The notes under the pieces are model-generated. The model had not been told where the DNA came from. It saw only the letters and a program-made list of their open reading frames with translations, and did no database searches. 20,000 bases of DNA from an uncultured virus (IMG/VR IMGVR_UViG_3300002488_000005) (taxonomy: Duplodnaviria; Heunggongvirae; Uroviricota; Caudoviricetes), in IMG/VR virus record IMGVR_UViG_3300002488_000005, positions 58,618-78,617 of that record. One strand, given 5' to 3'. Positions 2,583 through 18,561 of the stretch are shown here, one piece after another; within the stretch, counting starts at the first letter, position 1; each line of letters begins with the position of its first letter. The position numbers were made by a program, and so were the translations under genes.

Positions 2583-5500
2583 CACACATAGCAGACACAC
2601 ACATAAGAAACTTGAAGTATCACGATGAGTATAGAATCGCCTTTCGTGATCTTTATGAAAAATTAGCAAGCGACATGCCGGACCTTATTGTCCATTGCGG
2701 TGACCTTGCACATACAAAGACGCAACTCAGTCCTGAATATTTTCAACTGTGCGCAGAGTTTCTATCGTCTTTAGCCAACATAGCGCCAACATATGTTATA
2801 TTGGGTAATCACGATGGCAATCTCAAGAACGACAGTAGGCAAGATGCGATTACGCCTATTGTAAATGCACTGAACCATCCACGATTACATTTACTAAAAG
2901 ATAGTGGTGAAGTTCATATTGGCAATGATTTGGTTCTAAATGTGCTTTCAATCTTTGACCGAGACAATTGGGCCAAACCAACAAACAAAGAAAAAATTAA
3001 CATTGCCTTGTATCATGGGGCAATTGCCGGTAGCCAAACCGGTGCAGAATGGACAATGGACCAAGGAGATGACGATGTTTCTATTTTTCATGATTTTGAT
3101 TTTGCGATGCTTGGAGACATCCACAGACAGCAACAGCTAGACCTTGATGGTAGAGTCTGGTACTGTGGTTCAACCACTCAGCAGAAATTTAGCGAGTCTG
3201 CTCGCAAAGGTTATCTTTTGTGGGAAATAAACTCAAAAGACAAGTTTAACGTTTCAAAAAGATTCGTAATAAATCCAAGACCNTTTATTACAATAAGNCT
3301 AACAGATAAAGGTGCGCTACCAGACACTCATGTACCTAGAAATGCAAGACTCAGAATCATCTCTAGAACCAATTTGCCGGCTGATAAACTTAGGAAGGCA
3401 AGATCAATAGCGGAAATGAAATGGAGCCCTCATTCCGTAACAATGCTCAACGGCAAAGAATCGTCAAAAATGCATGATGAAGGCTATTATTCGAACTCTG
3501 TCTTATCTGAAAATCTAAGAGATATCAGTGTGCAAGAAAAATACATTAAGAACTATTTATCCGACATGGAGCTTGAACCTAGCGTTTTGGAAAAGGTTCT
3601 TGAGCATAACCAGAAATACAATACATTAGCAGAACAAGGGGAGGAAGTTAGTAGAAATGTTATATGGAAAATTAAAAAAGCAGAATGGGACAATTTGTTC
3701 AACTACAGTGAAAAGAATGAAATCGACTTTGCAAAACTCAACGGGCTTGTTGGCATCTTTGGCCGTAATTATTCCGGCAAGTCTAGTATTATCGACAGCA
3801 TTTTATTCACGCTGTTTAATGCAACCTCGAAAGGTGAGCGAAAGAACGTACACGTCATAAACCAAAATAAGCAAAAGGCTATTGGTAAGGTAGAGATTGA
3901 GGTTGGAGATAAAACCTACAAAATCTGTAGAAATTTAGAGAAGTATACTAAAAAGTATAAAGGCAAGGAGTCTCAAGAGGCTAAAGTTGATTTAGATTTT
4001 CATCTAGTTTCTGATGATGAAAGCCTGAACGGTACAACAAGGAATGAAACTGATTCCAACATTAGAAAGCACTTTGGGAGCATGGAGGACTTTTTGTTAA
4101 CATCCATGTCTTCCCAGTTAGATTCTTTGTCTTTTGTCAAAGAAGGTTCTACGAAGCGTAAAGAAATTCTCGCTAAGTTTCTGGATTTGGAAATATTTGA
4201 TAAAAAGTTCAAGTTGGCCAAAAAGGACGCTGCTGAGTTGCGTGGTGTCGTAAGAAGGCTACAGGATAAAAAGTGGGATAAAGAGATCCAAAAGAACATA
4301 GAGATCTTGGAGGAAATCAAGCACGATCTTGCTAACCAAAATACCAAATGTCAAAAAATAACATCAGAGTGCGACAGTCTTCAGGCAGAACTTGACATTC
4401 TCAATTCCAGAATTGAGAACATACCAGCAGAGCCAATTGACATTGATAAGGTTATTTTAGAAATTAGTAAGATACAGAAACGTAAGCAGCACCTCAAAGA
4501 TCAAACTCAAGATTTCAATTTCAAGGTCTGGGAAATGGAAGAGCAGGTTGAATCTAAAAAGAAAGAGTTTGCGGAGATCAATATAGGCGAATTACGTCTT
4601 AGTAGAGCATCTGCTGATGCTATCGAGCATAAAATCAAAAAGACACGTGAAGCTATATCAAACTGGATTTCGCAAGAAAAGGTAGCACTAAAAAAGATCA
4701 AGATGTTAGATAATCACGAATATGATCCCAACTGCGTGTTCTGTTGTGAAAATAAGTTCGTCAAAGATGCACATGATGCTAAATCTTCTTTACCCGATAC
4801 GTTGGAGAAAATTGCCCATCTACAGCAGCACCAAAGAGATCTACAGGACTCGCTAAATGACCTAGACGTAGAAACAGTAGATAGCCAAATTGATTTACAT
4901 GTCAAACTACAGGAAGACATTCACCGCCTAAGCAGAACAATTGAGATGCACAAAATTTCTATTGAAGGCAACAAATCAAAAATAAATCTCCTACATAAGG
5001 AATACGAAGAGTTGTGTGAAAAGAAAAACCTTTATGAAGAAAATCGAGAAGCAATTGAAAATTTAGAGACATTATCTAGAGAAAAGAATGCTTTAGAAAT
5101 GGTAATTCGCAGTAAGCAAAATTCTTATAAAAAGTGCCAAGATAGAATAACTGAGATTCTTGTTGAGAAAGGGTCAACCAAGTCGACATTGGCTACGTTG
5201 CTTGAAAACCGTAAAGAACTAGAGGATGTTGAGAGAGAGTGGATCGCTTATGATTTGTTTTTGCAATGTATGCATGCAAATGGCATTCCTTACCAAATTA
5301 TAAAACAAAAACTTCCTTTACTAAATGAAGAGATTGCAAAAATTCTAGAGAACATCGTTGATTTTGAAGTCTTTTTTGAGAGTAATGATGCAAAGCTCGA
5401 CATCAACATAAAGCACCCATATTATGATCCTCGTCCGTTATCTATGGGTTCAGGCGCAGAAAAGACATTGGCATCGATGGCAATACGTTTAGCTTTGATT

Positions 5501-5719
5501 TCAATAACAAATTTGCCAAAGAGCGAACTATTTATACTTGACGAACCAGCAACTGCTTTAGATCAAGAACACATGGAAGGCTTTACAAGATTGCTAAGAT
5601 TGATTAAAAACCAATTCAAGACTGTAATTCTAATCTCCCATCTTGATTCCTTAAAAGACGTTGTCGACATGACAATTGAAATTGATAAAGTTGATGGCTA
5701 TGCTAATGTGAGGGTGTAA
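2570..5719 (+). CDS. Fused Mre11/SbcD nuclease - Rad50/SbcC ATPase (T4 gp47-gp46-like)
   Basis: N-terminal metallophosphoesterase motifs (HIADTH, GD, GNHD, YHG, GDIH), then Walker A GRNYSGKS, long coiled coils with a central CVFC Zn-hook, signature-like SGAEK, Walker B FILDEP and H-loop ISH, all in one 1049-aa ORF. Confidence 0.93.
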   Translation: MYKIAHIADTHIRNLKYHDEYRIAFRDLYEKLASDMPDLIVHCGDLAHTKTQLSPEYFQLCAEFLSSLANIAPTYVILGNHDGNLKNDSRQDAITPIVNALNHPRLHLLKDSGEVHIGNDLVLNVLSIFDRDNWAKPTNKEKINIALYHGAIAGSQTGAEWTMDQGDDDVSIFHDFDFAMLGDIHRQQQLDLDGRVWYCGSTTQQKFSESARKGYLLWEINSKDKFNVSKRFVINPRXFITIXLTDKGALPDTHVPRNARLRIISRTNLPADKLRKARSIAEMKWSPHSVTMLNGKESSKMHDEGYYSNSVLSENLRDISVQEKYIKNYLSDMELEPSVLEKVLEHNQKYNTLAEQGEEVSRNVIWKIKKAEWDNLFNYSEKNEIDFAKLNGLVGIFGRNYSGKSSIIDSILFTLFNATSKGERKNVHVINQNKQKAIGKVEIEVGDKTYKICRNLEKYTKKYKGKESQEAKVDLDFHLVSDDESLNGTTRNETDSNIRKHFGSMEDFLLTSMSSQLDSLSFVKEGSTKRKEILAKFLDLEIFDKKFKLAKKDAAELRGVVRRLQDKKWDKEIQKNIEILEEIKHDLANQNTKCQKITSECDSLQAELDILNSRIENIPAEPIDIDKVILEISKIQKRKQHLKDQTQDFNFKVWEMEEQVESKKKEFAEINIGELRLSRASADAIEHKIKKTREAISNWISQEKVALKKIKMLDNHEYDPNCVFCCENKFVKDAHDAKSSLPDTLEKIAHLQQHQRDLQDSLNDLDVETVDSQIDLHVKLQEDIHRLSRTIEMHKISIEGNKSKINLLHKEYEELCEKKNLYEENREAIENLETLSREKNALEMVIRSKQNSYKKCQDRITEILVEKGSTKSTLATLLENRKELEDVEREWIAYDLFLQCMHANGIPYQIIKQKLPLLNEEIAKILENIVDFEVFFESNDAKLDINIKHPYYDPRPLSMGSGAEKTLASMAIRLALISITNLPKSELFILDEPATALDQEHMEGFTRLLRLIKNQFKTVILISHLDSLKDVVDMTIEIDKVDGYANVRV

Positions 5720-5720
5720 A

Positions 5721-6089
5721 ATGAAATTAACTACAAAATTATTGAAAAAAATAATAAGAGAAGAGGTTGATAGGCTCAAAGAAACAGCCTATAACAAAGC
5801 AAAAGAAATAGGGGAAAAGCACGGTATTAACGATTGGAAATCAATCGACTTCGACAAGCATGCGGCAGCGGCTAAACATGCCCTAAATATCTTGTCAAAG
5901 TTTGGTTATTTCAAAAGCGACAATAAGGGTGTTGCAAGGTGGGTTAATGAGCTAAACCTAATGAATGGGGTATACAAAATTTATGTACACCCAGACAAAT
6001 TTTCAGAAGTTGTGAATAAAATAGAAGCCGAAGCTCCTAGTATTGCAAGGTTCATGACAGTTACCTACTATGAGGAGAAAAAATTATGA
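5721..6089 (+). CDS. Hypothetical protein with 'MKLT..L..IIREE' leader
   Basis: N-terminus MKLTTKLLKKIIREEV; starts 1 nt after the preceding stop. Confidence 0.75.
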   Translation: MKLTTKLLKKIIREEVDRLKETAYNKAKEIGEKHGINDWKSIDFDKHAAAAKHALNILSKFGYFKSDNKGVARWVNELNLMNGVYKIYVHPDKFSEVVNKIEAEAPSIARFMTVTYYEEKKL

Positions 6090-6166
6090 GTAAGTCAGAA
6101 GAAAAAAAATGTAAATGCACAACACCGTGTTGTGAAGGTTGCCAATGTAAGGGGGGCTGTTGCTAA
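6086..6166 (+). CDS. 26-aa cysteine-rich, metallothionein-like peptide
   Basis: MSKSEEKKCKCTTPCCEGCQCKGGCC*; GAGGAG RBS at 6072-6077; ATGA overlap with the upstream stop and TAATG overlap with the downstream start. Confidence 0.7.
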   Translation: MSKSEEKKCKCTTPCCEGCQCKGGCC

Positions 6167-6429
6167 TGGCCTGTCACGACGATCATGATGTTGAACAAGA
6201 AGACACTCGATTATCGGGTGATTGTGAATCGCATGAAGCGATGAATAAATTAGGAATGATTGATATCATTCTTGGTAAGGCTGTATCTAGAAAGTTGCTG
6301 GTTTTTGCAACAGCAACAGGAATGTTTATGTGGTATGGTCTTGATCCTGACACGTGGGGCCTGATTGCAATGATATATGTCGGTGGCCAATCTGTTATTG
6401 ACACAGTCAAAGTATGGAAGCATGGATAA
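6166..6429 (+). CDS. Putative holin-like small membrane protein
   Basis: Two hydrophobic segments after an SRKLLV motif, with a basic C-terminal tail; ATG at 6166 overlaps the upstream TAA. Confidence 0.55.
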   Translation: MACHDDHDVEQEDTRLSGDCESHEAMNKLGMIDIILGKAVSRKLLVFATATGMFMWYGLDPDTWGLIAMIYVGGQSVIDTVKVWKHG

Positions 6430-6818
6430 TGTTTTGGGTTAAGCTAAAATTAGCTGCCGCATGGTGTCGCCAATACTGGAGATGGCTCGTATTTGTCATC
6501 GCAGTATTGGTTTCTTACCTTTTGGGTAAGAGAGACAAAGATAAACTGAAAGAACAAGCAAAGCTAGCAAAAGATATGTATATTAAAGAAAAGGAAGTGA
6601 TCGAAAGAGCACATCAGCAAGAAATGCAAGCCAAAGAAGAAGCACAACAAAGATATTCTGAGGCTGTCGATAAGATCGAAAAGAAGTACGAAGAAGACCA
6701 ATTCGATTTAACCCATGCAAAGAAAGAAGCAGTTAAGAAGATGGTCAACAAGGCCAAGAACAACCCGGATGAGATTGATCGCATTCTGGAGGAACAATTA
6801 GGAATAGTAAAAAAATGA
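6429..6818 (+). CDS. Membrane-anchored coiled-coil protein (i-spanin/Rz-like)
   Basis: Single N-terminal TM segment (WLVFVIAVLVSYLLG) followed by a charged helical coiled coil; directly follows the holin-like gene (TAATG). Confidence 0.5.
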   Translation: MFWVKLKLAAAWCRQYWRWLVFVIAVLVSYLLGKRDKDKLKEQAKLAKDMYIKEKEVIERAHQQEMQAKEEAQQRYSEAVDKIEKKYEEDQFDLTHAKKEAVKKMVNKAKNNPDEIDRILEEQLGIVKK

Positions 6819-7948
6819 AACTTATAATGGAAAATTGGAGAAGGTATATTGTAGAATCTAAGTTGAAATTGGATGAAAACCAAATGCAACCTAAATTCCT
6901 CAGAGAGTTTGTAATGAACGAGGGTCTTATTGAAGAAGACAAGGACCCTGACTCGTTATCTGTTCAAGAATTAGCCAATATGAAACCGCAGCAAATAATC
7001 AGTGCTTATGAAAACATGAAGAAGAATGAGACTGGTGACAGGATAGCAAAAAGAATTTCTCGGTACAAAGCATTGAACGACAGACTAAGAGAAACAGAAT
7101 TTGAAATGTCAGAACTAAAATGGACGAGAGAGGAAGGCGGACCTTCAATTTTCACTAATTTTTTCGACTCAATCAAAAAAATAACCAACGCAATTCTTAG
7201 GACCTCCTTCAAGACATCAAAAGAAAAAGAGGCCGATATAGAAAAAAATTATGACAAATCTGTCGCAGATCTTAGACAAATCATGCTTGATGCTTATAGT
7301 CCAATTGAAAGGGAGCTATTTAGAGCAATTAGTATTTTTACCGGAGGACATTACCCAGCGATCAGGGATCCTGATGCTTTTGATCCAAAGAAAGCCAAAG
7401 CTCTCAAGTTTGTTAATGATGGCATCATCGACATGTTTCAGCCTTCCAAAGAAACATACGAAAAGGCTAAAGTAATATTACAGAAACTAGTTCAATCCAA
7501 AATAAAACCTGTCGAGGTGTGGAGAGGCCTTAGTATGAAAGAGACGACATCTAGTAAAAGTAGGTATGCCGGTTTAGATTTGTATAAGAAAGGGAACGTA
7601 ATTAGTGTGGGTAATCTTAGCTCTTTTAGTACTGACAAGAATATTGCTTACGATAATTTTATGGAAGGCGAGCATTTTGCTAATTTGCAAAAAGGTCAAT
7701 GGGGTGTTATATTATATATACCTAAATTGACAAGGGGTGCTGACGTCGATGAGTTCTCGCAGTTCGAAGACGATGAAGTAGAGATTATAGTGTCTGGTAA
7801 ATTTAGAATAAGTAAAGTAGAATCGCACCCAAGAGGAAAGGAGAACAAGAGGCAAGAAGGCAATAGCTTACAGGACCTCTTGAATTCTCCAAACCCTCCA
7901 AGATATGATCAGCATGTCATAGTCATAACGTTAGAGGATATAAAATGA
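6815..7948 (+). CDS. ADP-ribosyltransferase, R-S-E class (T4 Alt/Mod, VIP2-like)
   Basis: C-terminal domain has VWRGL (Arg), LSSFST (STS motif) and SQFEDDEVEII (ExE); N-terminal leader MKLIMENWRRYIVE. Confidence 0.72.
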   Translation: MKLIMENWRRYIVESKLKLDENQMQPKFLREFVMNEGLIEEDKDPDSLSVQELANMKPQQIISAYENMKKNETGDRIAKRISRYKALNDRLRETEFEMSELKWTREEGGPSIFTNFFDSIKKITNAILRTSFKTSKEKEADIEKNYDKSVADLRQIMLDAYSPIERELFRAISIFTGGHYPAIRDPDAFDPKKAKALKFVNDGIIDMFQPSKETYEKAKVILQKLVQSKIKPVEVWRGLSMKETTSSKSRYAGLDLYKKGNVISVGNLSSFSTDKNIAYDNFMEGEHFANLQKGQWGVILYIPKLTRGADVDEFSQFEDDEVEIIVSGKFRISKVESHPRGKENKRQEGNSLQDLLNSPNPPRYDQHVIVITLEDIK

Positions 7949-8172
7949 AATTTTTATTATTATTAACATTAGCACAAGAGACCGAAGAACCAAAGGTCAA
8001 ATATCAAAAAGAAACGGTCATAGACTTTGAAGGATTAGAATTAGAAGGCGAACTGGTAAGGCCGCAAGGTAACCTCATCTTAGAAAGAAAACGAGCAAAT
8101 TTCAACCCTCTCATTAGACTAAGAGACACTTTTGATGCCGAGATCAAACAATCGGGAAAGGACATAGAGTAG
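7945..8172 (+). CDS. cglF: CglF/GltF-like (myxobacterial adventurous-gliding) small exported protein
   Basis: Short hydrophobic N-terminus, then KETVIDFEGLELEGELVRPQG...ERKRANFNPLIRLRDTFDAEIKQS. This matches the TVIDF...EGEL.KP.G...RK...F..LI..R..F..E...S pattern I recall for CglF/GltF. Confidence 0.72.
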   Translation: MKFLLLLTLAQETEEPKVKYQKETVIDFEGLELEGELVRPQGNLILERKRANFNPLIRLRDTFDAEIKQSGKDIE

Positions 8173-8777
8173 TGAAATTGACAACAAAACAGTTAAAACA
8201 AATCATTAAAGAAGAATTAGGCTCGCTTGTAAAAGAAGCAATGTATGTTCCACCCGGGGTGACTGACATCAGAAAAACACTCAATCCCCGACAGAGAAGA
8301 GCGGCGGATGAATTATACCAGACAGATCCAATAATGGGATCTGAGTTAGGTGGCGTGGACAAAGATCATATGGGCCCTGAGAAACCCGAACAGATTCTTG
8401 GGACTACTGGGATGCGGATACCAAAAGAAACAATTCGAAACACAGCAATAGATTATTTATCATCTGGATGGGATCGTGAGCGAATGCCCTTTAAGAATTG
8501 GAATATACACGCACTAAAGCCAAAGGTAATGAACCATGTACTTGACACACATTATCCCGGCTTCAGGGAACGTTTGGCTAATAGATGGAAAGGAGAACCA
8601 GAACATCAAAAAAGTCAGGACAATCAGCTTAAATGGCATGGCTTCCCTGACGGTGAGGAGTGGTTCGGGAAACATCGTGAATCTATAGATCAAATTGTCA
8701 CGGAAGTTATCTATGATATGTTCAAATTGTACAACAAGGAAGTTCTTCATGATATATTCAAATCGGATAGTATGTGA
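8172..8777 (+). CDS. Hypothetical protein with 'MKLT..L..IIKEE' leader (GTG start)
   Basis: N-terminus MKLTTKQLKQIIKEEL; TAGTG overlap with the upstream stop. Confidence 0.75.
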   Translation: MKLTTKQLKQIIKEELGSLVKEAMYVPPGVTDIRKTLNPRQRRAADELYQTDPIMGSELGGVDKDHMGPEKPEQILGTTGMRIPKETIRNTAIDYLSSGWDRERMPFKNWNIHALKPKVMNHVLDTHYPGFRERLANRWKGEPEHQKSQDNQLKWHGFPDGEEWFGKHRESIDQIVTEVIYDMFKLYNKEVLHDIFKSDSM

Positions 8778-8805
8778 GAAATAGAATATAATTACAAGAA
8801 AAAAC

Positions 8806-8834
8806 TTGACAAACCCCTAAAAGCGTGTTATACT
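8806..8834 (+). promoter_or_regulatory. Sigma70-type promoter (extended -10)
   Basis: TTGACA (8806-8811), 17-nt spacer, TATACT (8829-8834) preceded by TGn, with an A-rich upstream tract, in the largest intergenic gap of the window (78 nt). Confidence 0.85.
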
Positions 8835-8855
8835 ATATTTTTACACGGAGATCAA

Positions 8856-9266
8856 ATGACTAGTTTTTTTATGTTTTTGCTAATGGCATGCCCTGTTGCT
8901 CATGCGGATGTGCCAAAGTTTACAAGTATTAAGAAAGGAGAAGCTGCGCCCTTCGCAGGGCGACTATTCAACGACGAGGCTCTTGCAATTATCATTGTTG
9001 ATAAGAAATTCGAAGGCAAAGAATGCCAGTTGCGTGTGAATTACGAGGTTGATTTGATGAAGGCACATGAAAAATACAAGTTTGATATCCTCACGGCGAC
9101 TTGTGAAGCAGATGATATGCGTTTGAGCGAACTAATTAGCATTAGGGAAGAAGAAAACAAATTTCTTCGTGAACAGATTAAGCCAAGTAAAAACTCGTGG
9201 TGGTTGGCTGGTGGATTTATCACTGGTGTGGCAACTGCGATTGGCATAATGAATGTTATAAAATAG
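8856..9266 (+). CDS. Exported coiled-coil protein with C-terminal membrane anchor (possible spanin component)
   Basis: Signal-like N-terminus (AHA|D cleavage site, or LMAC lipobox-like), helical middle, C-terminal WWLAGGFITGVATAIGIM; GGAG RBS. Confidence 0.6.
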   Translation: MTSFFMFLLMACPVAHADVPKFTSIKKGEAAPFAGRLFNDEALAIIIVDKKFEGKECQLRVNYEVDLMKAHEKYKFDILTATCEADDMRLSELISIREEENKFLREQIKPSKNSWWLAGGFITGVATAIGIMNVIK

Positions 9267-9274
9267 GAATTATT

Positions 9275-9520
9275 ATGAAAATAACAAAACAAAAATTATT
9301 GAACTTAATAAAAGAAGAGATGGAGCTAGATAACGTCCTATCAGACGAATTGGAAAATAAAGTTGGACCAATTGCGAAAAAACTTAGAGATGATTTGAAA
9401 ACAAATGCTGCTGTGGTCAAGATTGTAGACGACGCAGCAAAAAACATTTCTGGTGGAAATGAAAACGTTCAGGGATTAGTCAAGGCAGCTATTCTAAGTA
9501 AGATTTTTATTGAAGACTAA
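9275..9520 (+). CDS. Hypothetical protein with 'MKIT..L..LIKEE' leader
   Basis: ATG at 9275 after AGGA; MKITKQKLLNLIKEEM. The ORF-track start at 9197 is probably too long. Confidence 0.75.
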   Translation: MKITKQKLLNLIKEEMELDNVLSDELENKVGPIAKKLRDDLKTNAAVVKIVDDAAKNISGGNENVQGLVKAAILSKIFIED

Positions 9521-9530
9521 TGGAGGCACC

Positions 9531-9917
9531 TTGAGCAAAGATCCAAATTATGCAATTAAAATAGAAAAAGCAATAGCAAAAAAGTATGGCGATGAAACCG
9601 TACAGCACCCTAAAAAGAATTGGTGCGATAAAAAAGAAAAAAAATACTTATCGGAAATGAAAAGGCTTTACAAGCCAGAAAGCAATCCAGATGATGATGT
9701 TGAAATTGACGGTGTTTTAATATCAAGGAAACTAATTACAAAAGAATCTGATCGTTCTTGTCCGATTTGTAACACATATTCATTCAAATCAAGCGATGAT
9801 GTTTACATGTCAAAGTTTGGTTGCTGTCAAAGGTGCTACATTCAGTGGGTTGAAGGCCGTGAAGAAAGATGGAAAAACGGATGGAGACCAAATGAAGATT
9901 ACAAAAACGAGACTTAG
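9531..9917 (+). CDS. Hypothetical protein with C-terminal zinc-binding motif
   Basis: GGAGG then TTG at 9531; CPIC...CCQRC. Confidence 0.7.
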   Translation: MSKDPNYAIKIEKAIAKKYGDETVQHPKKNWCDKKEKKYLSEMKRLYKPESNPDDDVEIDGVLISRKLITKESDRSCPICNTYSFKSSDDVYMSKFGCCQRCYIQWVEGREERWKNGWRPNEDYKNET

Positions 9918-10197
9918 AAAAATTATTCAAGAAGAAATGCAAAGACTTGAGGAAATCGATAATGATTGGGCTGTTGAAAAGGCCATGGATGAATTGAGAC
10001 GATTATTGCTTTCAGGCAGAATCCCAGATCCAATTATGGTTTTAGATGGTTTTATTGAGGAATTGAAAGCTATGTCTGATGGTGGTAGCGACTTGCCGCC
10101 AACAGGAGGCTCCATTCCTCCTTCAGGTGACATGGGCGGAATGCCAATGCATGCCGGTATGATGGAAGGATTCAAAAGAAAAAAGAGGAAAAAATAA
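9892..10197 (+). CDS. Hypothetical protein with 'MKIT..L..IIQEE' leader
   Basis: ATG at 9892 after GGAG; MKITKTRLRKIIQEEM; G/P/M-rich and basic C-terminus. Confidence 0.72.
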   Translation: MKITKTRLRKIIQEEMQRLEEIDNDWAVEKAMDELRRLLLSGRIPDPIMVLDGFIEELKAMSDGGSDLPPTGGSIPPSGDMGGMPMHAGMMEGFKRKKRKK

Positions 10198-10748
10198 TGG
10201 CAGATTCTAATATTTTAGAGATTGTAAGAGGCTTGGCCCAAGCGGCAGCAAATGCTTATGATGGTTCGCATGATGAGCGCTTTGTTCGTGATGGCGAGGC
10301 TAAGAAAGTCGGACTCCAGAGAGAGGAAGGTTGCCCTATAATGGATTCTAGGGTTATGGATGGATTTAATGTAAAATTTTACGGAAATAAAATCTGTATA
10401 AAATACCAATCAGACATTCAATTGAAAGAGATTCATGGTGGCGGCTTTGAAACAGAGATGGAAAGAAGACTCGATGAGATCAAAAAGTTCTTGCAAAAAG
10501 AGTATAAGGTAATCACCGGCAAATCAATTACATTATCAAAAGTAGACGATATTCAGATTTTAGCAACTTCTGTTTCACGAGTAAGGTCATTTGTACAAGC
10601 ATATCGTCACTATAACATATCCGGCCTAAAAGAAGACGAAGGCTGGAAAGGATCAGAAAATAGATCTGTTGATGATTCTATTAGAAAGTTTTTAGAGTTA
10701 AGTAACAATAACAAGAGACCCCAGAACGATACAAGGAAAAAGGGCTAA
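10197..10748 (+). CDS. Hypothetical protein upstream of terminase
   Basis: 183-aa ORF; GAGG RBS; TAATG overlap. Confidence 0.75.
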   Translation: MADSNILEIVRGLAQAAANAYDGSHDERFVRDGEAKKVGLQREEGCPIMDSRVMDGFNVKFYGNKICIKYQSDIQLKEIHGGGFETEMERRLDEIKKFLQKEYKVITGKSITLSKVDDIQILATSVSRVRSFVQAYRHYNISGLKEDEGWKGSENRSVDDSIRKFLELSNNNKRPQNDTRKKG

Positions 10749-10754
10749 TGTATA

Positions 10755-12338
10755 ATGGCCTTCAGGTTAACAAAGAAACAGATTGTTAAAGAAATACTAA
10801 AATGTGGAAAAGATGCTCCACATTTTATTAATAATTATTGTCGAATAAGTCACCCCATGAAAGGTTTGATTCAGTTCAAGACTTACCCATATCAAGATGA
10901 TTTACTAAATGATTATAATGATTTTAGATTCAACGTTATTCTAAAAGCTAGGCAGTTAGGGATATCAACCATTACTGCTGCTTATTGCGTTTGGTTTATG
11001 CTTTTCCACAAAGAAAAGAACATTGTTGTTCTTGCGACCAAGTTCAGCACAGCGGCGAACTTAGTAAAAAAAGTAAAAAGTATGATGAAGAATTTACCTG
11101 AGTGGATGAAAATAGCAACAATTGACGTTGACAATAGAACGTCTTTTGAATTATCTAATGGCTCAATCATAAAAGCAGTGCCCACTTCTGAAGACGCTGG
11201 TCGTTCAGAGGCGTTATCTTTGCTTGTTGTTGATGAGGCTGCTCATATAGAAAAAATGAATGAAATTTGGACTGCGGTTTACTCCACGCTAGCAACTGGT
11301 GGTCGGTGCATTGCACTTTCTACTCCAAAAGGAACGGGAAACTGGTTTCACAAGACGTATATTGGGGCAGTTGACGGAGAAAACGAATTCAATCCCATAG
11401 AGCTAATGTGGGATGTGCACCCGGAGCGAGATCAGGCTTGGTTTGAAAAGGAAACTAAAAACATGTCTAAGAGACAAGTGGCCCAAGAATTGCTCTGTAA
11501 TTTTAACACCTCCGGAGATACAGTTGTTCATCCGGATGATTTGGCTTGGATTCAAGGAAACATCAAAGATCCGATCTATAGAACTGGATATGATAGAAAT
11601 TTTTGGATTTGGGAGAAATTTGACGGCAATAACCAATACTTACTAACAGCAGACGTAGCCAGAGGCGATGGTGCAGATAATTCTGTATTCCATGTCATAA
11701 AACTAAACACCATGGAGATCGTAGCAGAATATCAGGGCAAACCATCTTTAGATTTATATTCTAGGATCCTGTTTGATGCCGGTGTTGAATACGGAAATTG
11801 CTTATTAGTTGTCGAGAACAACGGAATTGGGATCTCTGTTTTAGAAAAGCTATGTGATTTGGGATATCCTAATCTTTACTATTCAATAAAGTCAACGCAT
11901 GAGTTCGTTGAGTCTTATCAGGGGGAAGTGATGGACAAGGCCGTAGCAGGGTTTACTACTTCTACCAAGACAAGGCCACTGGTTGTGGCTAAATTGGAAG
12001 AATTTTTTAGGAATCGACTCTTAACAACTTATTCATCTAGAATTTATCACGAATTGAAGACATTTATTTGGCAAAACGGCAAACCACAAGCAATGCGTTC
12101 ATATAACGACGATTTGGTTATGGCACTTGCCATCGGCTGCTGGGTCAGAGATACCGCTCTACAGGTCAACAAGAGAGAAGTAGAATATAAAAAAGCGCTA
12201 TTGAATTCTATGTATAAAAGTGACAGCGTTATGAACACAACAATTAAAGGAATGAAGGGCTACAACGAAAAAATTGAAGAAAAACAACAAAAATTCAAAG
12301 AAGATATGACTAAATTCTCATGGATTTACAAAGGATAA
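10755..12338 (+). CDS. Terminase large subunit (T4 gp17-like)
   Basis: YPYQ adenine-binding motif, Walker A KARQLGIST, Walker B LLVVDEAA, motif III STPKG, nuclease acidic motifs ADVARG and DDLVMA. Confidence 0.95.
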   Translation: MAFRLTKKQIVKEILKCGKDAPHFINNYCRISHPMKGLIQFKTYPYQDDLLNDYNDFRFNVILKARQLGISTITAAYCVWFMLFHKEKNIVVLATKFSTAANLVKKVKSMMKNLPEWMKIATIDVDNRTSFELSNGSIIKAVPTSEDAGRSEALSLLVVDEAAHIEKMNEIWTAVYSTLATGGRCIALSTPKGTGNWFHKTYIGAVDGENEFNPIELMWDVHPERDQAWFEKETKNMSKRQVAQELLCNFNTSGDTVVHPDDLAWIQGNIKDPIYRTGYDRNFWIWEKFDGNNQYLLTADVARGDGADNSVFHVIKLNTMEIVAEYQGKPSLDLYSRILFDAGVEYGNCLLVVENNGIGISVLEKLCDLGYPNLYYSIKSTHEFVESYQGEVMDKAVAGFTTSTKTRPLVVAKLEEFFRNRLLTTYSSRIYHELKTFIWQNGKPQAMRSYNDDLVMALAIGCWVRDTALQVNKREVEYKKALLNSMYKSDSVMNTTIKGMKGYNEKIEEKQQKFKEDMTKFSWIYKG

Positions 12339-12342
12339 AAAA

Positions 12343-14286
12343 ATGGCTTATAATAAAAATAACAAGAATCCGTATAATGAAACATCAGGGCTTTTCAAAG
12401 CGCTCACAAAATTATTTTCGGGTCCAATAATAAATAGAAGAACTCAAACAGGCAGAAAACTCAGACGCAGACATTTAGACATGTTTTCATCTAAGTTTAG
12501 ATCTGCTAGCGGTAAACAATTCAAAAAGACAGAATACAATGCAATGAATGCGATCACTGTCAACATGATCTCGGCTAGAAATAGAACAGAGCGTTATGTA
12601 GATTTTGATGAAATGGAATATGAACCAATAATTGCATCTAGTATTGATATTTATGCGGACGAAATCACTACACACTCCTCAATACAACCAATGTTGAAGA
12701 TCAAGTGTCCGAATGATGAAATAAAGGCAATTTTAAATTCATTATATTACAATGTTTTGAACATAGAGCACAATCTTTTTGGATGGGCTCGCACCATGTG
12801 TAAGTATGGCGATCTATTTTTGTATTTAGACCTTGACGATAACATAGGAGTTCGTTCGTGCATTGGGATTCCGTCCCAAGAAGTGGAAAGATTAGAAGGC
12901 GAAGATGAATCAAATCCAAATTATGTACAATTCCAGTGGAATTCTGCTGGTTTGACATTAGAAAACTGGCAGGTTGCACATTTTAGGGTTTTAGGAAACG
13001 ACAAGCACTATCCATACGGGACCTCAGTCTTAGAGCCAGCCAGACGCATATGGAGGCAGCTAATTTTGTTAGAAGACGCCATGATGGCCTACAGAATTGT
13101 TCGTTCTCCAGAAAGACGAGCATTTTATATTGATGTTGGGTCTATTCCCCCGCAAGATGTTGAGCAATATATGCAAAAAGTCATGACTCAAATGAAGAGA
13201 CACCAAGTTGTTGATCCGAAAACTGGTCGGGTTGACTTACGATACAATCCGCTTTCTATTGAGGAGGATTATTTTATTCCAATCCGTGGTGGTGCTTCCA
13301 ACACAAAAATCGAATCTATGAAAGGTGGGGAATTTACCGGCCAAATAGAAGATGTTAAGTATCTGCGTGAAAAGTTGTTCGCAGCGTTAAAAATCCCACA
13401 ATCATACCTTGTTATGGGTGAGGGCGCACAAGAAGACAAGACAACATTGGCCCAAAAGGACATCAGGTTTGCGAGAACAATTCAAAGACTACAAAGATCT
13501 GTTGTGTCTGAATTGGAAAAAATAGGAATTATACATCTTTTTACATTGGGCTATCGTGGAGATGACTTGCTGTCATTCAAGTTAGGTTTGAACAACCCTT
13601 CAAAAATAGCAGAATTACAAGAACTGGAGCACTGGAAGACTAAATTCGACGCAGCGGGTGCGGCCACTGAAAACTATTTCTCTAGAAGGTGGGTAGCAGA
13701 AAACATGTTGGGTGTATCCGAAGAAGAGTTCCTCAGAATGCAAAGAGAGATGTACTTCGACAAAAAATTCTTAGCAGATCTTGAAAAAGCAGCATCTGGT
13801 GAACAAGGAGGCGGTGACGATCTCGGTGGTGGTGATCTAGGCGGAGACCTTGGCGGCGATCTCGGTGGGGACCTTGGTGGTGATTTGGACCTCGGAGGTG
13901 ATGAAGGCGGTGATGCCGGAGAAGATGAAGGAGGAGACGCTGGTGGTGACGATGATGTTCTATTGGCAGCGCCCGGCAAAAGAGATGAGGACATTTGGGT
14001 TCGTGCAGATGCGGCCAAGTTCAAGAGAGGCAAATATAAAAGGCACAAGTCTTCTTATGACAAAGGCGGCAGAAGAAAGCAGATGAAAAATATGGCTACT
14101 GGAGAATATGGACAAACTGGGCGATCAATCTGGAAAGGATATCCAGAACTGAGTCGTTTAGGGAAAGGTATTATAGAATCTCATAAAGTAGAAGAAAATA
14201 AACTATTTAGTACTAAAGATGAAACAGCTTACTTAGTTGAAGGCTTACTATCAAAGAGGAATAATGATGAAAATGAAGCACAATAA
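12343..14286 (+). CDS. Portal protein (T4 gp20-like) with low-complexity C-terminal extension
   Basis: LEDAMMAYRIVRSPERRAFYIDVG, EEDYFIP, EDVKYLREKLFAALKIP and DIRFARTIQRLQ are gp20-family motifs; follows the terminase. Confidence 0.93.
   Translation: MAYNKNNKNPYNETSGLFKALTKLFSGPIINRRTQTGRKLRRRHLDMFSSKFRSASGKQFKKTEYNAMNAITVNMISARNRTERYVDFDEMEYEPIIASSIDIYADEITTHSSIQPMLKIKCPNDEIKAILNSLYYNVLNIEHNLFGWARTMCKYGDLFLYLDLDDNIGVRSCIGIPSQEVERLEGEDESNPNYVQFQWNSAGLTLENWQVAHFRVLGNDKHYPYGTSVLEPARRIWRQLILLEDAMMAYRIVRSPERRAFYIDVGSIPPQDVEQYMQKVMTQMKRHQVVDPKTGRVDLRYNPLSIEEDYFIPIRGGASNTKIESMKGGEFTGQIEDVKYLREKLFAALKIPQSYLVMGEGAQEDKTTLAQKDIRFARTIQRLQRSVVSELEKIGIIHLFTLGYRGDDLLSFKLGLNNPSKIAELQELEHWKTKFDAAGAATENYFSRRWVAENMLGVSEEEFLRMQREMYFDKKFLADLEKAASGEQGGGDDLGGGDLGGDLGGDLGGDLGGDLDLGGDEGGDAGEDEGGDAGGDDDVLLAAPGKRDEDIWVRADAAKFKRGKYKRHKSSYDKGGRRKQMKNMATGEYGQTGRSIWKGYPELSRLGKGIIESHKVEENKLFSTKDETAYLVEGLLSKRNNDENEAQ
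13819..13899 (+). repeat. Coding tandem repeat (DLGG)x6 in the portal tail
   Basis: Mostly 12-bp units GAYCTNGGNGGN with synonymous variation. Confidence 0.85.
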
Positions 14287-15091
14287 GAAAAGAAATACCG
14301 CTTTTCTTTACGAATGTCTTGTAAAAGAACTTACAAAATCAATTGTTAGAAATGATAAAGACAAAAAGAAAGCAATTATAAAGATTATAAAAGAGTTTTA
14401 CTGTAGAGGATCACTCTTGAGAGAGGATTTGGAAATATACAAATCGGTTCTAGAATCCAACAAGATGTCTACAGAGTTCGCCAAAAGATTTATCTTTGAA
14501 GCGAAAAAAGACTACGACGCTTTAGATAGAAAAGCTATCTTCAACCTCCAGACAAAGCTGATTAGAGCCATTAACGAGACGTTATCAAACAATGCTTTTG
14601 CTAACTTTATATCAAACTACAAAGACATAGCGTCTGTTGGTGCTTTTTTTGATTCCAATTTGAAGGCAAAAAACAGACTAATTGTCGAATCTAGGCTGCT
14701 GACAAAATTGACTAAAAAGCCTAGTGCCGAAAAGGAAATGAGGCATATTGATAACCTGACTTATAAAACTTTTGTGGATTCTTTTAACAAGAGATATGAA
14801 AAGACATTAAGAAAAGAGCAAAAGGACTTACTGACTAATTATATTGTTTCTTTTTCTGATAATGGATTAGGCCTAAAATCGTTCATGAATGAGGAAATTT
14901 CACGACTTATAAAAGAGGTAGATAACATTACCGAAACTCAAAAAAACGATAAAAATGGTATGTTTTTGTCCAAAATAGAGCGTGTTTCTACTAAGTTGAA
15001 AGACTTTTCAAAGAAGCCTATCTGTGAGCAAATGGTAAAAGATGTTTTTTATATACAAGATTTAGTAGCGGAGATCAATAGAAATGCCTAA
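14264..15091 (+). CDS. Hypothetical protein downstream of portal (head module)
   Basis: GAGGA RBS at 14256-14260 with ATGs at 14264/14267/14273; MKHNKKRNTAFLYE; largely helical. Confidence 0.75.
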   Translation: MMKMKHNKKRNTAFLYECLVKELTKSIVRNDKDKKKAIIKIIKEFYCRGSLLREDLEIYKSVLESNKMSTEFAKRFIFEAKKDYDALDRKAIFNLQTKLIRAINETLSNNAFANFISNYKDIASVGAFFDSNLKAKNRLIVESRLLTKLTKKPSAEKEMRHIDNLTYKTFVDSFNKRYEKTLRKEQKDLLTNYIVSFSDNGLGLKSFMNEEISRLIKEVDNITETQKNDKNGMFLSKIERVSTKLKDFSKKPICEQMVKDVFYIQDLVAEINRNA

Positions 15092-15770
15092 TTTGAAAAT
15101 AACACCCAAAGACATGCTCAATGTTGATTTATACGATGATGTTGATGTTAGAGTGCAACAGGCGCAACAAGTTCCAGTTCAAATAACGGGCCTTCCGAGT
15201 CAGGAAGAGAAGGTTAGCGTCAATATCAAGCCGCCTGACATGTCTGTTAACATCATTAACGATAAGAAAAGAGTATTTGAATTTCAACTAAATGTTAGAA
15301 GCGCTTTGAATGGCGACTTTATGATTTTTGACCATAAAGACATTGATATCATGATAATAAAGGAAAAAAAGAAAATTGTTGCATTTGCTAAAGACATGAT
15401 GTCGGAGGCGGTTTATGGTGCCGAAAATCGACTTTTCAACCATCTACGTAAAAAAGGGATTGTGGCTTATGACTCAATAAAAGGCGGTAGCGTCTATGGG
15501 TCTCTAGAAGCCCTTATGTTGGAAGCCAAAGATAAAAAAGAGCCGGAAGTTCTTGATTTAGTTTTATATCAAATTAGTGAATGGATGAAGAACGAAAAAC
15601 CACATTTTGAAACCGATAACGATTATGATGATCTTATCAATGACTATTATTCAGATCCAGAAGAAGACCAGTCGACTGAGTTAGGCGAAGTGCCACATGA
15701 AGAAGAAAAAGGATCAATAAGGCAGCATGGCTTGTTTGCTCCATATCTTTACGGGAGATATACGTACTAA
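15084..15770 (+). CDS. Hypothetical protein with acidic C-terminus
   Basis: 228-aa ORF; GGAG RBS; overlaps both neighbours. Confidence 0.72.
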   Translation: MPNLKITPKDMLNVDLYDDVDVRVQQAQQVPVQITGLPSQEEKVSVNIKPPDMSVNIINDKKRVFEFQLNVRSALNGDFMIFDHKDIDIMIIKEKKKIVAFAKDMMSEAVYGAENRLFNHLRKKGIVAYDSIKGGSVYGSLEALMLEAKDKKEPEVLDLVLYQISEWMKNEKPHFETDNDYDDLINDYYSDPEEDQSTELGEVPHEEEKGSIRQHGLFAPYLYGRYTY

Positions 15771-16597
15771 TGATATTATCTGCCTTTCAAATAAAGCAAA
15801 TAATAAAAGAAGAAATAGAATTCTTTTTAGACGAAGATAGAAGGGGTAACAAAATAATTGGCTATCACGCAACAAACACAGGGGTAAATCTATCTAATGT
15901 GCTTGGATGGAAAGAGATTACAACCAATAGGAGCGTAGATATGGCCTCTGCTCAGGGTGGTGGCTTTTACTTATTTAGTGACAAGAATAGAGCACTAAGA
16001 AGACTCAAGAGCACTGCGGCAGTCTCTGATTGGGATGAAGAAACAGGCATTCATTCATATAGAAAGATGGATCCTGATTTAGATGGACTAGGTATGATTA
16101 TAACCCTAGAGGTCCCCTACAGCTTTAGGCACTTGGAAATAGATTATGAGGTTAGCTACGACATTTGGATTGATTTCGTAATCACCTATATGGATAGGTT
16201 CTTGTCCTTAACGCTGCCTAATGGACAAAAGATTTTTGATTATTATGACAAAGAAAATAATAGGATTGTAGTTAANCCACCATACAACGTAAAAAGACAA
16301 TTAGGCCCTTATATTACATTAGACAAGAAAATATCTGGTGGCACAAAAAGATTGGTTGGGAACGTTATGTCTAGAGTTTTCAAATTTATGGAACAAGGAC
16401 TATTTGGTTCTGCTGCTAAGGGAATTCACCAAGAGTTCGAAGAGCAGCTAATTGAGAAAGCACCAGCATTCAAGTATAATGGGAAAAACATCTCACCAAC
16501 TAAAATAGAAATTGTTGTAAATGATAGATTATATGACGTGACAAAAGAAGTTCTTTCTGGGGATTTCGAACGTATGAAAGCAAAACTGGAGATTTGA
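15770..16597 (+). CDS. Leader-bearing protein with putative H-Y-E-class ADP-ribosyltransferase-like domain
   Basis: Leader MILSAFQIKQIIKEEI, then IIGYHATN...QGGGFYLFSD..RA, and a late EIVV strand. Confidence 0.5.
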   Translation: MILSAFQIKQIIKEEIEFFLDEDRRGNKIIGYHATNTGVNLSNVLGWKEITTNRSVDMASAQGGGFYLFSDKNRALRRLKSTAAVSDWDEETGIHSYRKMDPDLDGLGMIITLEVPYSFRHLEIDYEVSYDIWIDFVITYMDRFLSLTLPNGQKIFDYYDKENNRIVVXPPYNVKRQLGPYITLDKKISGGTKRLVGNVMSRVFKFMEQGLFGSAAKGIHQEFEEQLIEKAPAFKYNGKNISPTKIEIVVNDRLYDVTKEVLSGDFERMKAKLEI

Positions 16598-16905
16598 TGG
16601 ATTTACTATATTTTATTCTTGCCTCATATGGCTTGACCTTTATTTTGGTTTATGGCAAGATTTTTGAAGACCTAAGGCCGGCAAAAGATTATAGTAAAAA
16701 ATGGAATACACTATTTCATTGCCCTCTTTGCGTAGGATTTTGGACAGGATGCTTTCTTTTTTTGATAAACGCCGGAACCGAACTATTTACTTTTGATTAC
16801 ACAATTGCAAATTTTTTTATTTGCGGTTGGATCTCATCTGGGACTTCTTATTTTCTATCTATGGTAGTGGATGATTCCGGATTTAAAATAACAAAAAAGG
16901 AATAA
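16597..16905 (+). CDS. DUF1360-like membrane protein
   Basis: Three hydrophobic segments with an LFHCPLCVGFW motif. Confidence 0.6.
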   Translation: MDLLYFILASYGLTFILVYGKIFEDLRPAKDYSKKWNTLFHCPLCVGFWTGCFLFLINAGTELFTFDYTIANFFICGWISSGTSYFLSMVVDDSGFKITKKE

Positions 16906-16908
16906 AAG

Positions 16909-17232
16909 ATGAAATTAACAAGCAAAAGACTTAAGCAAATGATCAAGCGGGAACTAAAGGAAATGATGTCTTACAATAGAGATGATGACCAAAGAAGCAA
17001 GAATGCATTCATGATGCATCATTTGAACAACGTTTTGAATGGGATTACTGCTATCCCTGTTGACCAAAAAGCACAAATTGAATCTTCAGTGAAAAACTAT
17101 ACAAGAAATGCAGATTTTCCACAGACATTTGATAATGCTTTAGAAATGGCTCTCAATGATACAGTGCCCGAATTACCTAGTGAGTTAAAAGGAATGATCA
17201 TGCAGCAAGTAAGATCACAATCAGGAGAATAA
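16909..17232 (+). CDS. Hypothetical protein with 'MKLT..LK.MIKREL' leader
   Basis: MKLTSKRLKQMIKRELKEM; AAGGA RBS. Confidence 0.75.
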   Translation: MKLTSKRLKQMIKRELKEMMSYNRDDDQRSKNAFMMHHLNNVLNGITAIPVDQKAQIESSVKNYTRNADFPQTFDNALEMALNDTVPELPSELKGMIMQQVRSQSGE

Positions 17233-17233
17233 A

Positions 17234-17287
17234 ATGACTAAAAAATGGATGTTACAGCCCGTTCGACGTTGTTGTTCAGGAAGCTGA
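17234..17287 (+). CDS. 17-aa peptide MTKKWMLQPVRRCCSGS
   Basis: AGGAG at 17223-17227, ATG 1 nt after the previous stop, TGA at 17285-17287; fills the gap before the protease. Confidence 0.5.
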   Translation: MTKKWMLQPVRRCCSGS

Positions 17288-17292
17288 CTCAA

Positions 17293-17307
17293 GCGGGTAA
17301 CGCCCGC
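17293..17307 (+). promoter_or_regulatory. GC-rich hairpin upstream of the protease RBS
   Basis: GCGGG-TAACG-CCCGC perfect 5-bp stem in an AT-rich context; no U-tract follows. Confidence 0.5.
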
Positions 17308-17321
17308 AATAAGGAAAGAAA

Positions 17322-17948
17322 ATGGCTAAAAAATTATTAACAGAATTTTTTGAACTTTGCAAGGATGGTATTTGCCAAGACCTGTTGACCGAGAGGGAAA
17401 AGAGAGAAATGGCAAATGGCGTTCTGTATTTATCTGGTAGACTTCAGACATGCGAAAAAAAGAATGGCAATGGAAGAGTCTACCCGTGTAAAGTTCTTGA
17501 TAGAGAGATTAACAATTACAAAAGAGTTATAGAGGACAACAGGGCTTTAGGCGAACTAGATCACCCTGATGACTCGGTTATAAATCTTAGAAATGCTTCT
17601 CATATGGTAACAGACATCTGGTGGGAAGGAAATGATGTAATGGGCAAGATAAAGGTCCTAGACACACCATCTGGTAAGATCTTGAAAGATCTTATCAATA
17701 ACGGCGTAAAATTAGGAATTTCTTCTAGAGGCCTTGGATCTGTAAAAGAAAGCATGGGAAACACTGTTGTGCAAGAAGACTTTGAACTAATCTGCTTTGA
17801 CATTGTTTCGGAACCATCAACGCCCGACGCCTACATATATCCAGAGCAGAGCGCTTCGGGCAGAACCATTAGGATGCGTGAAAACAAACTTAATGAAAAG
17901 AAAGATCTGATACTTAACGATCTTTTTGATAAAATTTTGAGAGACTAA
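17322..17948 (+). CDS. Prohead core protein protease (T4 gp21-like)
   Basis: KNGNGRVYP, ALGELDHP, GISSRGLGS and FDIVSEPS motifs. Confidence 0.93.
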   Translation: MAKKLLTEFFELCKDGICQDLLTEREKREMANGVLYLSGRLQTCEKKNGNGRVYPCKVLDREINNYKRVIEDNRALGELDHPDDSVINLRNASHMVTDIWWEGNDVMGKIKVLDTPSGKILKDLINNGVKLGISSRGLGSVKESMGNTVVQEDFELICFDIVSEPSTPDAYIYPEQSASGRTIRMRENKLNEKKDLILNDLFDKILRD

Positions 17949-18355
17949 TGAATAAAAATGAACTAAAGAGAATCTTGAAACCTCTTATAAAGGAGTGTAT
18001 CAAGGAAGTGCTTTTTGAAGAAAGTGGCGCTTTGTCGCATGTTATAAAAGAAGTTGCGGTTGGTTTATCTGGAAAAGAAACAATAACAGAATCCAACTAT
18101 AATGCGCCCAAACCCAAGGCAAACAATAAGCACTTAAAACAAAAAAAGAAAAAATTGCTTGATGTTATTGGGCGTGATGCTTACAACGGAATAGATCTTT
18201 TTGAAGGGACAACCCCGGCTCCAGCGCCTGTTCAAACTGGAAACGGTAGAGGTCCATTGTCTGATGTGGCCCCTAATGATCCCGGAGTTGATATAAGTGA
18301 AATTTTTAATGCAAAATCATTTGCAATTTCTAGAAAAATGATGGGGAAAGAATAA
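17948..18355 (+). CDS. Hypothetical head-module protein with leader-like N-terminus
   Basis: MNKNELKRILKPLIKECIKEVLFEE; TAATG overlaps on both sides. Confidence 0.7.
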   Translation: MNKNELKRILKPLIKECIKEVLFEESGALSHVIKEVAVGLSGKETITESNYNAPKPKANNKHLKQKKKKLLDVIGRDAYNGIDLFEGTTPAPAPVQTGNGRGPLSDVAPNDPGVDISEIFNAKSFAISRKMMGKE

Positions 18356-18561
18356 TGGCAACAAATCTGGTTGTAAAGCCTAGAAGGGGCGAAAATATTG
18401 AGCGAGTTATAAAAAGGTTCAATAGGAAAGTAAAGAAACTTGGAATCATAAACGAATACAAGGAAAGTCAAAGGTATACTAAGCCTTCTGATAAGCGAAG
18501 ATTGAGAAACAAGAGATCCGATAGAAGAAGAGCAAAGGAATTAGCAAAAGCTAACAAATGA
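18355..18561 (+). CDS. rpsU: Phage-encoded ribosomal protein bS21
   Basis: 68 aa, very basic; V...GENIERVIKRFNRKVKK.GII.E.K....Y.KPS.KRR is the bS21 signature. Confidence 0.88.
   Translation: MATNLVVKPRRGENIERVIKRFNRKVKKLGIINEYKESQRYTKPSDKRRLRNKRSDRRRAKELAKANK

Follow-up and report, generated by a model that had tools for sequence, protein, structure and literature searches.

The prohead protease gp21 of bacteriophage T4 cleaves proteins after (L/I)-x-E. The T4 prohead core contains gp21, gp22, gp67, gp68, Alt and the internal proteins, and core proteins are cut into pieces that exit the head (PMC9026906). According to the same source, the first 10 residues of the internal protein IPIII suffice for packaging, targeting being affected by residues 4 and 7 and processing by residues 8 and 10; an Asp at P1 prevents processing while leaving targeting intact, and Alt loses 7 N-terminal residues (PMC9026906). 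The function of this capsid-targeting sequence (CTS), processing at I-x-E and the diversity of internal proteins are thus described for T4 (PMC3012670, PMC9026906, PMC12373910): the internal proteins of T-even phages form a diverse set to which the CTS alone is common (PMC3012670), T4 Ip1-3 are inhibitors of GmrSD restriction enzymes, a different one for each protein (PMC12373910), and CTS fusions, in use for delivery since the 1990s, have carried GFP, beta-galactosidase and nucleases (PMC9026906). Here we analyzed a stretch of 20,000 nt from an uncultured marine T4-like phage (IMG/VR IMGVR_UViG_3300002488_000005, positions 58,618 to 78,617; hereafter the window), which is the terminal 20 kb of a 78.6-kb contig and in which a short N-terminal leader is shared by unrelated proteins. 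Judging from the sequences and by analogy with T4, we estimate a probability of about 60% that the leader is a clade-specific capsid-targeting propeptide on variable cargo, cleaved by a gp21-type protease, and thus the counterpart of the T4 CTS.

The pattern M-K-L-T-x-x-x-L-K-x-I-I-K-E-E-L, 16 residues in length, opens six ORFs in the window and one ORF upstream of it, the extra copy being located 1,914 bases ahead of the window, at contig position 56703. The leader genes of the window, the variant gene at 6815 and the protease gene are as follows.

5721-6089, + strand: leader protein of 122 aa (MKLTTKLLKKIIREEV...), 25.9 bits
6815-7948, + strand: variant type-2 leader MKLIMENWRRYIVES on a 377-aa predicted R-S-ExE ADP-ribosyltransferase (alignment A3, Foldseek)
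8172-8777, + strand: leader protein of 201 aa, the GTG start of which overlaps the upstream stop, 36.6 bits
9275-9520, + strand: leader protein of 81 aa, 19.7 bits
9892-10197, + strand: leader protein of 101 aa, 26.2 bits
15770-16597, + strand: leader protein of 275 aa, 17.0 bits
16909-17232, + strand: leader protein of 107 aa in a conserved slot just upstream of the protease, 25.7 bits
17322-17948, + strand: prohead protease of the T4 gp21 type, Peptidase_S77 (Pfam E 6.8e-34; PHROG 207 E 5.9e-62)

The bit scores were obtained with a position-specific scoring matrix (PSSM), which was scored leave-one-out in six frames over the 78.6-kb contig. The seven members scored 17.0-36.6 bits and the top non-members 10.2-11.9 bits, and none of the 71,643 non-member positions reached the score of any member. 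All seven copies begin exactly at the start codon. The initial annotation had listed seven leader proteins in the window, and their seven N-termini are all present in the sequence, with GTG as the start codon at 8172 and ATG at the others. Six of these proteins form the tight family, but the seventh, at 17948, stands apart. It was rejected as a member because its N-terminus scored 9.0 bits, at an offset of +2 and within the noise, and because it belongs to a conserved, core-type gene family of its own; the 27 sequences of this family (alignment A4) have a separate N-terminal helix and, at the C-terminus, the motif FEGTTP...DPGVDIS.

The second leader type that had been noted at 6815 (MKLIMENWRRYIVE) is a variant which aligns in register with the first: M1, K2, L3, I12 and E14 are kept, while L is replaced by W at position 8 and I by Y/F at position 11. 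The type-2 leader also heads a 1,382-aa ORF at contig position 2991. As had been claimed, the bodies behind the leaders are unrelated, the best pairwise BLASTP E-value among ten bodies being 0.26. The genes had also been described as interspersed singly; two of them do lie between portal and protease, but the other five cluster at 5.7-10.2 kb, in a variable region between the nuclease and terminase genes. The presence of a gp21-like protease, also proposed initially, was confirmed (Peptidase_S77 score 117.5 bits, cut-off 27).

The window thus resembles the T4 CTS system in that a short N-terminal peptide ending in I-x-E stands on unrelated proteins and is encoded with a gp21-type protease and a T4-type portal, in that the cargo set is polymorphic between relatives, and in that one cargo is a predicted ADP-ribosyltransferase, as is Alt. 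The leader is longer than its T4 counterpart (14-22 residues versus 10). It stands on 5-14 genes per genome and in at least 5,772 database clusters, compared with 3 in T4 and about 10 known in T-evens, and it also occurs as internal and C-terminal copies and in multi-module proteins; the leader system is known from sequence. A further comparison is with the giant phages phiKZ and SPN3US, in which propeptides of head and ejection proteins are cut by gp21-like proteases after a short motif ending in Glu. To our knowledge, these propeptides are not one shared portable leader, and their cleavage motif differs. Their likeness to the present system is that a diverged homologue of gp21 cleaves numerous proteins inside the head after Glu (PMC9026906, PMC5694885).

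To describe the leader in relatives, 80 viral-contig loci (1.03 Mb) were retrieved via the protease at 46-100% identity. The leader profile gave 122 matches of at least 13 bits in these related loci, every one of them on the gene strand; the opposite strand gave no match. Of the 122, 110 are at an ATG or GTG, in 56 of the loci. Of the leader ORFs, 44 are located just upstream of the protease and 49 before the terminase, 7-10 kb upstream; in 35 of 79 related loci a leader ORF ends directly before the protease. The genome-wide count suggested by the initial annotation gave seven profile members in the contig and 6, 5, 10 and 14 matches in four near-complete relatives of 179-186 kb. Related loci and near-complete relatives together provided 128 distinct leader proteins of 33-407 aa.

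A profile built from residues 1-42, searched against the 50%-identity clusters of 1.84 billion proteins, matched at least 5,772 representatives at E <= 0.001. A word-indexed search of 5.8 billion proteins placed 563 of 7,998 scored candidates at E <= 10. When 50,697 phage records were searched by tblastn with a leader protein of 36 aa, no match was obtained at E <= 10, a weak null result since the query is short and low in complexity. Neither the leader strings nor such tags in marine phages were found in the literature, supplements lying outside this search, and the combination of 'capsid targeting' with 'cyanophage' retrieved a review by Black alone.

The leader could owe its conservation to the nucleotide sequence, either as an A-rich translation start or as a recombination sequence that shuffles cassettes. 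Its codons are indeed A-rich, with AAA, ACA and GAA dominating, and T4-type phages are described as shuffling cassettes via short repeats (PMC2839356). However, L8 is encoded by all six Leu codons, the conserved residues take all synonymous codons, identical residues share the same codon in 71 of 142 comparisons among the contig leaders, and the longest exact nucleotide run common to two leaders is 6-13 bases. Because synonymous codons vary and the shared runs are so short, the leader must be conserved at the protein level, and a nucleotide-level artefact is largely refuted. Neither does such a feature account for the absence of matches on the opposite strand, for the small number of matches off a start codon (12/122), or for the absence of the motif from those contig genes that are recognised as belonging to replication or structure. 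The initial annotation had considered an A-rich start bias, with the motif equally common on replication enzymes; this is not what we observed, and we regard an explanation of this kind as highly improbable.

The consensus of the leader is M-K-(L/I)-T-x-x-x-L-(K/R)-x-(I/L/M)-I-K-E-E-(L/I/M), followed by an acidic linker; a W8/F11 variant exists. Across the 128 leader proteins, K2 is present in 110, T4 in 112, L8 in 112, I12 in 118, E14 in 118 and E15 in 104. The (I/L)-x-E sites that had been noticed in and after the leaders are fixed in position: 110 of the 128 proteins have an [LI]-x-E with its Glu at residue 14, and second sites end at residue 18, 21 or 22 (17, 14 and 23 proteins, respectively). 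The mean charge changes from +3.1 over residues 1-13 to -3.7 over residues 14-30. In AlphaFold models a helix is predicted with low confidence at residues 5-20 of the 15770 protein and 2-17 of the 6815 protein.

These features suggest how the leader may operate. First, the basic N-terminal half (residues 1-13) and the hydrophobic positions 3, 8, 11, 12 and 16 would bind a core component, and binding during formation of the prohead core would co-assemble any tagged protein into the prohead. Second, the gp21-type protease (17322-17948) would cut after Glu14 of I12-x-E14 and free the cargo, with a second cut at an L/I-x-E near residues 18-22 in about half of the proteins; we infer this cleavage from the position of the motif and from its avoidance in the cargo bodies described below. 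Third, by analogy with T4 IPI-III and Alt, the cargo would stay in the head and enter the host with the DNA. As for the partner in the first step, the initial annotation had suggested looking for the same helix on the scaffold or capsid propeptides, but in relative G003 the gp22-like scaffold and the gp23-like capsid protein are without it. Complex predictions of the leader (residues 1-45 of the 16909 protein) with the 14264, 15084 and 17948 families, run without controls, gave an ipSAE of 0.00, which counts neither for nor against docking; the gp22-like scaffold lies beyond the contig end.

The cargo is highly diverse. In the related loci, 107 bodies fell into 77 BLASTP clusters, and a Pfam match was found in 4 of 123 leader proteins of at least 60 aa (Phage_L5_gp82 twice, RNase_T once and a weak DUF5661), so that the catalogue of cargo domains proposed at the outset consists mostly of unannotated proteins. 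Pfam and PHROGs gave no family for the six type-1 cargos of the window and for 6815, and the two upstream leader proteins are without a Pfam family, one of them having PHROGs of unknown function only. In one relative, an AAA_33 P-loop protein bears the type-2 leader. Homologues of the 15770 cargo carry either leader, type 1 in P0003 (MHLTIKQLKQIIKEEV) and type 2 in P0004 (35% identity; MKLLFESWRRFIKEE), and the two types are therefore interchangeable on one cargo. From these sequences, the cargo appears to be a fast-turning set of mostly small unannotated proteins which also includes putative enzymes: the window contributes the ADP-ribosyltransferase at 6815, and related phages a DEDD exonuclease as well as a P-loop kinase.

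Tagged proteins would share the prohead with a gp21-type enzyme and would have to survive it, and their bodies should therefore avoid (L/I)-x-E. We counted [LI]xE in the bodies, defined as residue 31 to the end, and compared the counts with shuffled sequences. In the bodies of the leader proteins (97 clusters, 10,585 aa), 79 sites were observed versus 108.2 +/- 9.3 (0.73x, z -3.1); the control motifs [LI]xD, [LI]xK and Ex[LI] in the same bodies were at 1.32x, 1.30x and 1.33x. For 68 contig genes without a leader, [LI]xE was at 1.24x (z +3.5) and the control motifs at 1.08-1.11x. The database matches, counted outside their leader copies (247 clusters, 28,029 aa), gave 0.88x (z -2.2) for [LI]xE and 1.35x for [LI]xD. 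A control from the related loci was set aside, since the same conserved head genes, in up to 80 copies, made up most of it. The depletion of [LI]xE in the cargo is thus specific and repeatable, and this avoidance suggests that the cargo must survive the protease. Motif avoidance is a new kind of in silico evidence for exposure to a capsid protease and could be used for other phages.

The same data bear on whether the tagged proteins are delivered at all. They might instead be disposable filler of the core or scaffold, like T4 gp67, gp68 and gp22, which would be degraded and expelled at maturation. In the 35 loci mentioned above, the leader gene lies between the portal and protease genes, where T4 has gp67/gp68; short, acidic, low-complexity sequences are common among the cargos, and T4 core proteins are described as being cut up and leaving the head (PMC9026906). 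Filler would hardly need to avoid the protease motif, however, and some cargos are predicted enzymes (ADP-ribosyltransferase, exonuclease, P-loop kinase), while a yield of 77 clusters from 107 bodies resembles the repertoire of an arms race. We consider filler quite unlikely.

Several observations weigh against a cleaved capsid-targeting propeptide. The leader shares with the T4 CTS, for which the common N-terminus of ipII and ipIII is MKTYQEFIAE, only M-K and the terminal I-x-E. A Glu directly follows Glu14 in 104 of 128 proteins, that is, at P1' of the presumed cut. Acidic bodies predominate among the cargo, 80 of 123 having a net negative charge (mean -1.55 per 100 aa), unlike the basic internal proteins of T4, and the depletion of [LI]xE is only moderate, as the z values of -3.1 and -2.2 indicate. 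The leader profile (A1) matched neither of the two cultured relatives searched, Flavobacterium phage immuto and Microcystis phage Mel-JY01. Finally, a pure N-terminal signal would not require internal copies, which were found both in the related loci and in the database. In five ORFs of relatives a copy of the form ...ITKxDIxxMVxEEIxxVxxG-x-stop is located 23 residues before the stop (L011:2932-3639, L012:545-988, L036:534-950, L020 at 159 and L053 at 733), and the first three of these ORFs also start with the leader. Among the best 119 database matches, a sample biased by score ranking, which favours proteins with several copies, the motif is at residue 1 in 107, and 59 proteins carry 70 internal copies. 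The Met is kept in 55 of these 70, and a junction L-(E/G)-(E/G)-(N/K)-K precedes them. Multi-module proteins (database P0019-P0063 and P0138-P0273) contain 2-4 full leader copies; judging from their sequences, they may have arisen when adjacent leader genes fused in frame, or may represent polyprotein cargo. The junction, in turn, might be a ribosome-binding site that is now read through, an additional L-x-E site for cleavage, or the two at once.

Such copies, together with the dissimilarity to the T4 CTS and the cultured relatives that are without the leader, would be expected of a general docking or oligomerisation helix which is not cut and is unrelated to the capsid, its partner being a host complex, a phage chaperone, a membrane or other leader proteins. 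The helical hydrophobic moment, 0.39 versus 0.25 +/- 0.13 for shuffled sequences, is modest and fits this explanation as well. The leader lacks a hydrophobic core of the secretion-signal kind, which speaks against this explanation. Docking also leaves unexplained why [LI]xE is fixed at residues 12-14 in 110 of 128 proteins, why the same motif is specifically depleted in the bodies, why 110 of 122 matches are placed exactly at the N-terminus, and why the genes cluster beside those for head assembly. A docking helix of this sort is an unlikely explanation in our judgement.

We thus favour the capsid-targeting propeptide. The modular tag-plus-cargo system envisaged by the initial annotation draws support at the sequence level from the position of the motif, the protease and T4-type portal, conservation as protein, the exchange of leaders on one cargo, the [LI]xE depletion and the predicted ADP-ribosyltransferase among the cargo; no support was obtained for 17948 as a leader protein, for 15770 as an ADP-ribosyltransferase or, in G003, for the same helix on the scaffold or capsid protein. 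Its proposal to use the leader as a protein-delivery tag is not new, the T4 CTS being the precedent in PMC9026906. Since the principle, including this use, is already established in T4, the advance is one of scope, not of kind: it consists in a distant uncultured clade that has another tag, a far larger set of cargo, part of which is enzymatic, proteins of several modules and the avoidance of the protease motif. Provided that the tag functions in this way, a simple sequence rule picks out the capsid-carried and probably injected proteins of abundant uncultured ocean phages, whereas such lists for other phages need virion proteomics. Given that the three internal proteins of T4 inhibit host restriction enzymes (PMC12373910), the thousands of tagged unannotated proteins would then offer many candidates for counter-defence factors and for enzymes of host takeover. 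A wider reading, which we offer as tentative, is that the leader defines a system for loading cargo in marine T4-like phages which is very large and unannotated, with multi-module polyproteins in which the internal copies act as docking helices and cut sites and by which one gene supplies several effectors, and that the tag of each T4-like clade has evolved with its core. Should this be true, any domain could be loaded, and the tag would be a sequence handle for listing the injected anti-defence proteins of uncultured ocean phages.

Two leader proteins, 6815 and 15770, had been taken for ADP-ribosyltransferases, and the assignment stands for the first. The 6815 protein has 13 homologues, and the type-2 leader is kept in all 14 sequences of the alignment (A3). 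Invariant among them are W236-R237, S270-F271 (within GNLSSFS) and E321-x-E323, which follow an N-terminal half, about 190 residues long, that is conserved and helical. A structural model with a mean pLDDT of 60.9 gave eight Foldseek matches in the PDB at E <= 0.001, all of them ADP-ribosyltransferases of the Vis, VahC, SpvB and CDTa kind, the top match being Vis (4xzj, E 1.8e-5, probability 1.00) although the TM scores are low (0.22/0.35). Its language-model neighbours are clusters of ADPrib_exo_Tox (PF03496); in the search against Pfam no family was matched at E <= 0.01, and the gathering score of PF03496 was not reached. From motifs and modelled fold, 6815 is a predicted R-S-ExE ADP-ribosyltransferase. 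It resembles T4 Alt and the C2/C3/Vis-type enzymes in the positions of Arg, Ser-x-Ser and Glu-x-Glu and in the fold, and Alt also in its N-terminal propeptide-like leader, but it differs from Alt in having no detectable sequence relation to it. As hhalign of the 6815 family with T4 Alt gave a probability of 0.4, 6815 is not an Alt homologue.

For 15770 the assignment is unsupported. Its model (pLDDT 67.7) had no Foldseek match at E <= 0.001, and the best VIA-align match, with a Z of 4.7, was to CARD domains. The language model gave a weak hint, a cluster at rank 29 with 29% of its members annotated as ART-PolyVal, and rows for DUF3990 fell under the bar. The ORF contains a single N at window position 16276, which gives an X in the protein; the identical viral contig L001 has Lys at this residue (alignment A2).

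The clear genes of the window are all on the + strand. Besides the leader genes and the protease, the following were identified.

1420-2388, + strand: primase (family searches)
2570-5719, + strand: fused SbcD/SbcC-like nuclease (family searches)
10755-12338, + strand: large terminase (family searches)
12343-14286, + strand: T4-type portal (gp20), into which acidic GGDL repeats are inserted close to the C-terminus (Pfam Portal_T4, E 1.2e-76, 258.7 bits)
14264-15091, + strand: conserved head-module protein, putatively in the slot of T4 gp67/gp68 (alignment A5)
15084-15770, + strand: second conserved head-module protein (alignment A6)
17948-18355, + strand: conserved 135-aa protein directly after the protease, with a leader-like helix LKPLIKECIKEV and several IxE sites (27-sequence alignment A4)
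18355-18561, + strand: ribosomal protein S21 gene (Pfam E 1.3e-13)

The nearest cultured phages are immuto and Mel-JY01, with a portal identity of about 40%. The gene order of Mel-JY01 matches that of the window: terminase, portal, three ORFs, protease, a small ORF and S21, followed later by a gp22-like scaffold and the major capsid protein. Because Mel-JY01 shows the same order, the scaffold and capsid genes of the window phage are expected beyond the contig end. The 17948 protein is probably a small prohead core protein. Homologues of the 14264 protein were found as 73 ORFs of the related loci and also in Mel-JY01 and immuto; neither this protein nor 15084 matched PDB sequences below E 0.1. 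The S21 gene is located inside the head module, after the protease and the small conserved protein, and is in the same place in Mel-JY01 and related contigs.

The insert of the portal is an acidic Gly/Asp/Leu low-complexity segment of GGDL repeats in the C-terminal part of the protein (residues 489-538, window 13807-13956). It lies outside the Portal_T4 match, and the local G+C climbs to 0.45 there. In T4 the SbcD and SbcC counterparts are two genes, 47 and 46. The nuclease ORF of the window encodes 1,049 aa, in which a Metallophos (SbcD/Mre11-like) N-terminus is joined to an SbcC/Rad50-like SMC ATPase, and its frame stays unbroken across the N bases at 3283 and 3298.

At the start of the window, 134-1450, seven small paralogous ORFs of 55-81 aa overlap in tandem. 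They have a common N-terminal (K/E)-V-G-D-L-V ... G-I-(I/V)-(L/V)-E and often end with ...LEV(V/I/L)NESR; they are without a Pfam family, the last ORF weakly matching YccV-like (E 0.0024). Four T4-type late promoters (TATAAATA) were found on the gene strand of the contig, none of them near the leader genes. Two possible lysis genes lie among the leader genes. One, 6414-6818, encodes 134 aa with an N-terminal membrane segment and weak matches to Rz-like spanin PHROGs (E 4.6e-4), and the other, 8856-9266, encodes 136 aa with a membrane segment at the C-terminus and a signal resembling that of lipoproteins (LLMAC). Between the two leader genes of the head module, 16594-16905, an intact ORF encodes a small CxxC membrane protein; in one relative (L016:8227-9527) this protein is interrupted by an inserted GIY-YIG-like ORF of 257 aa.

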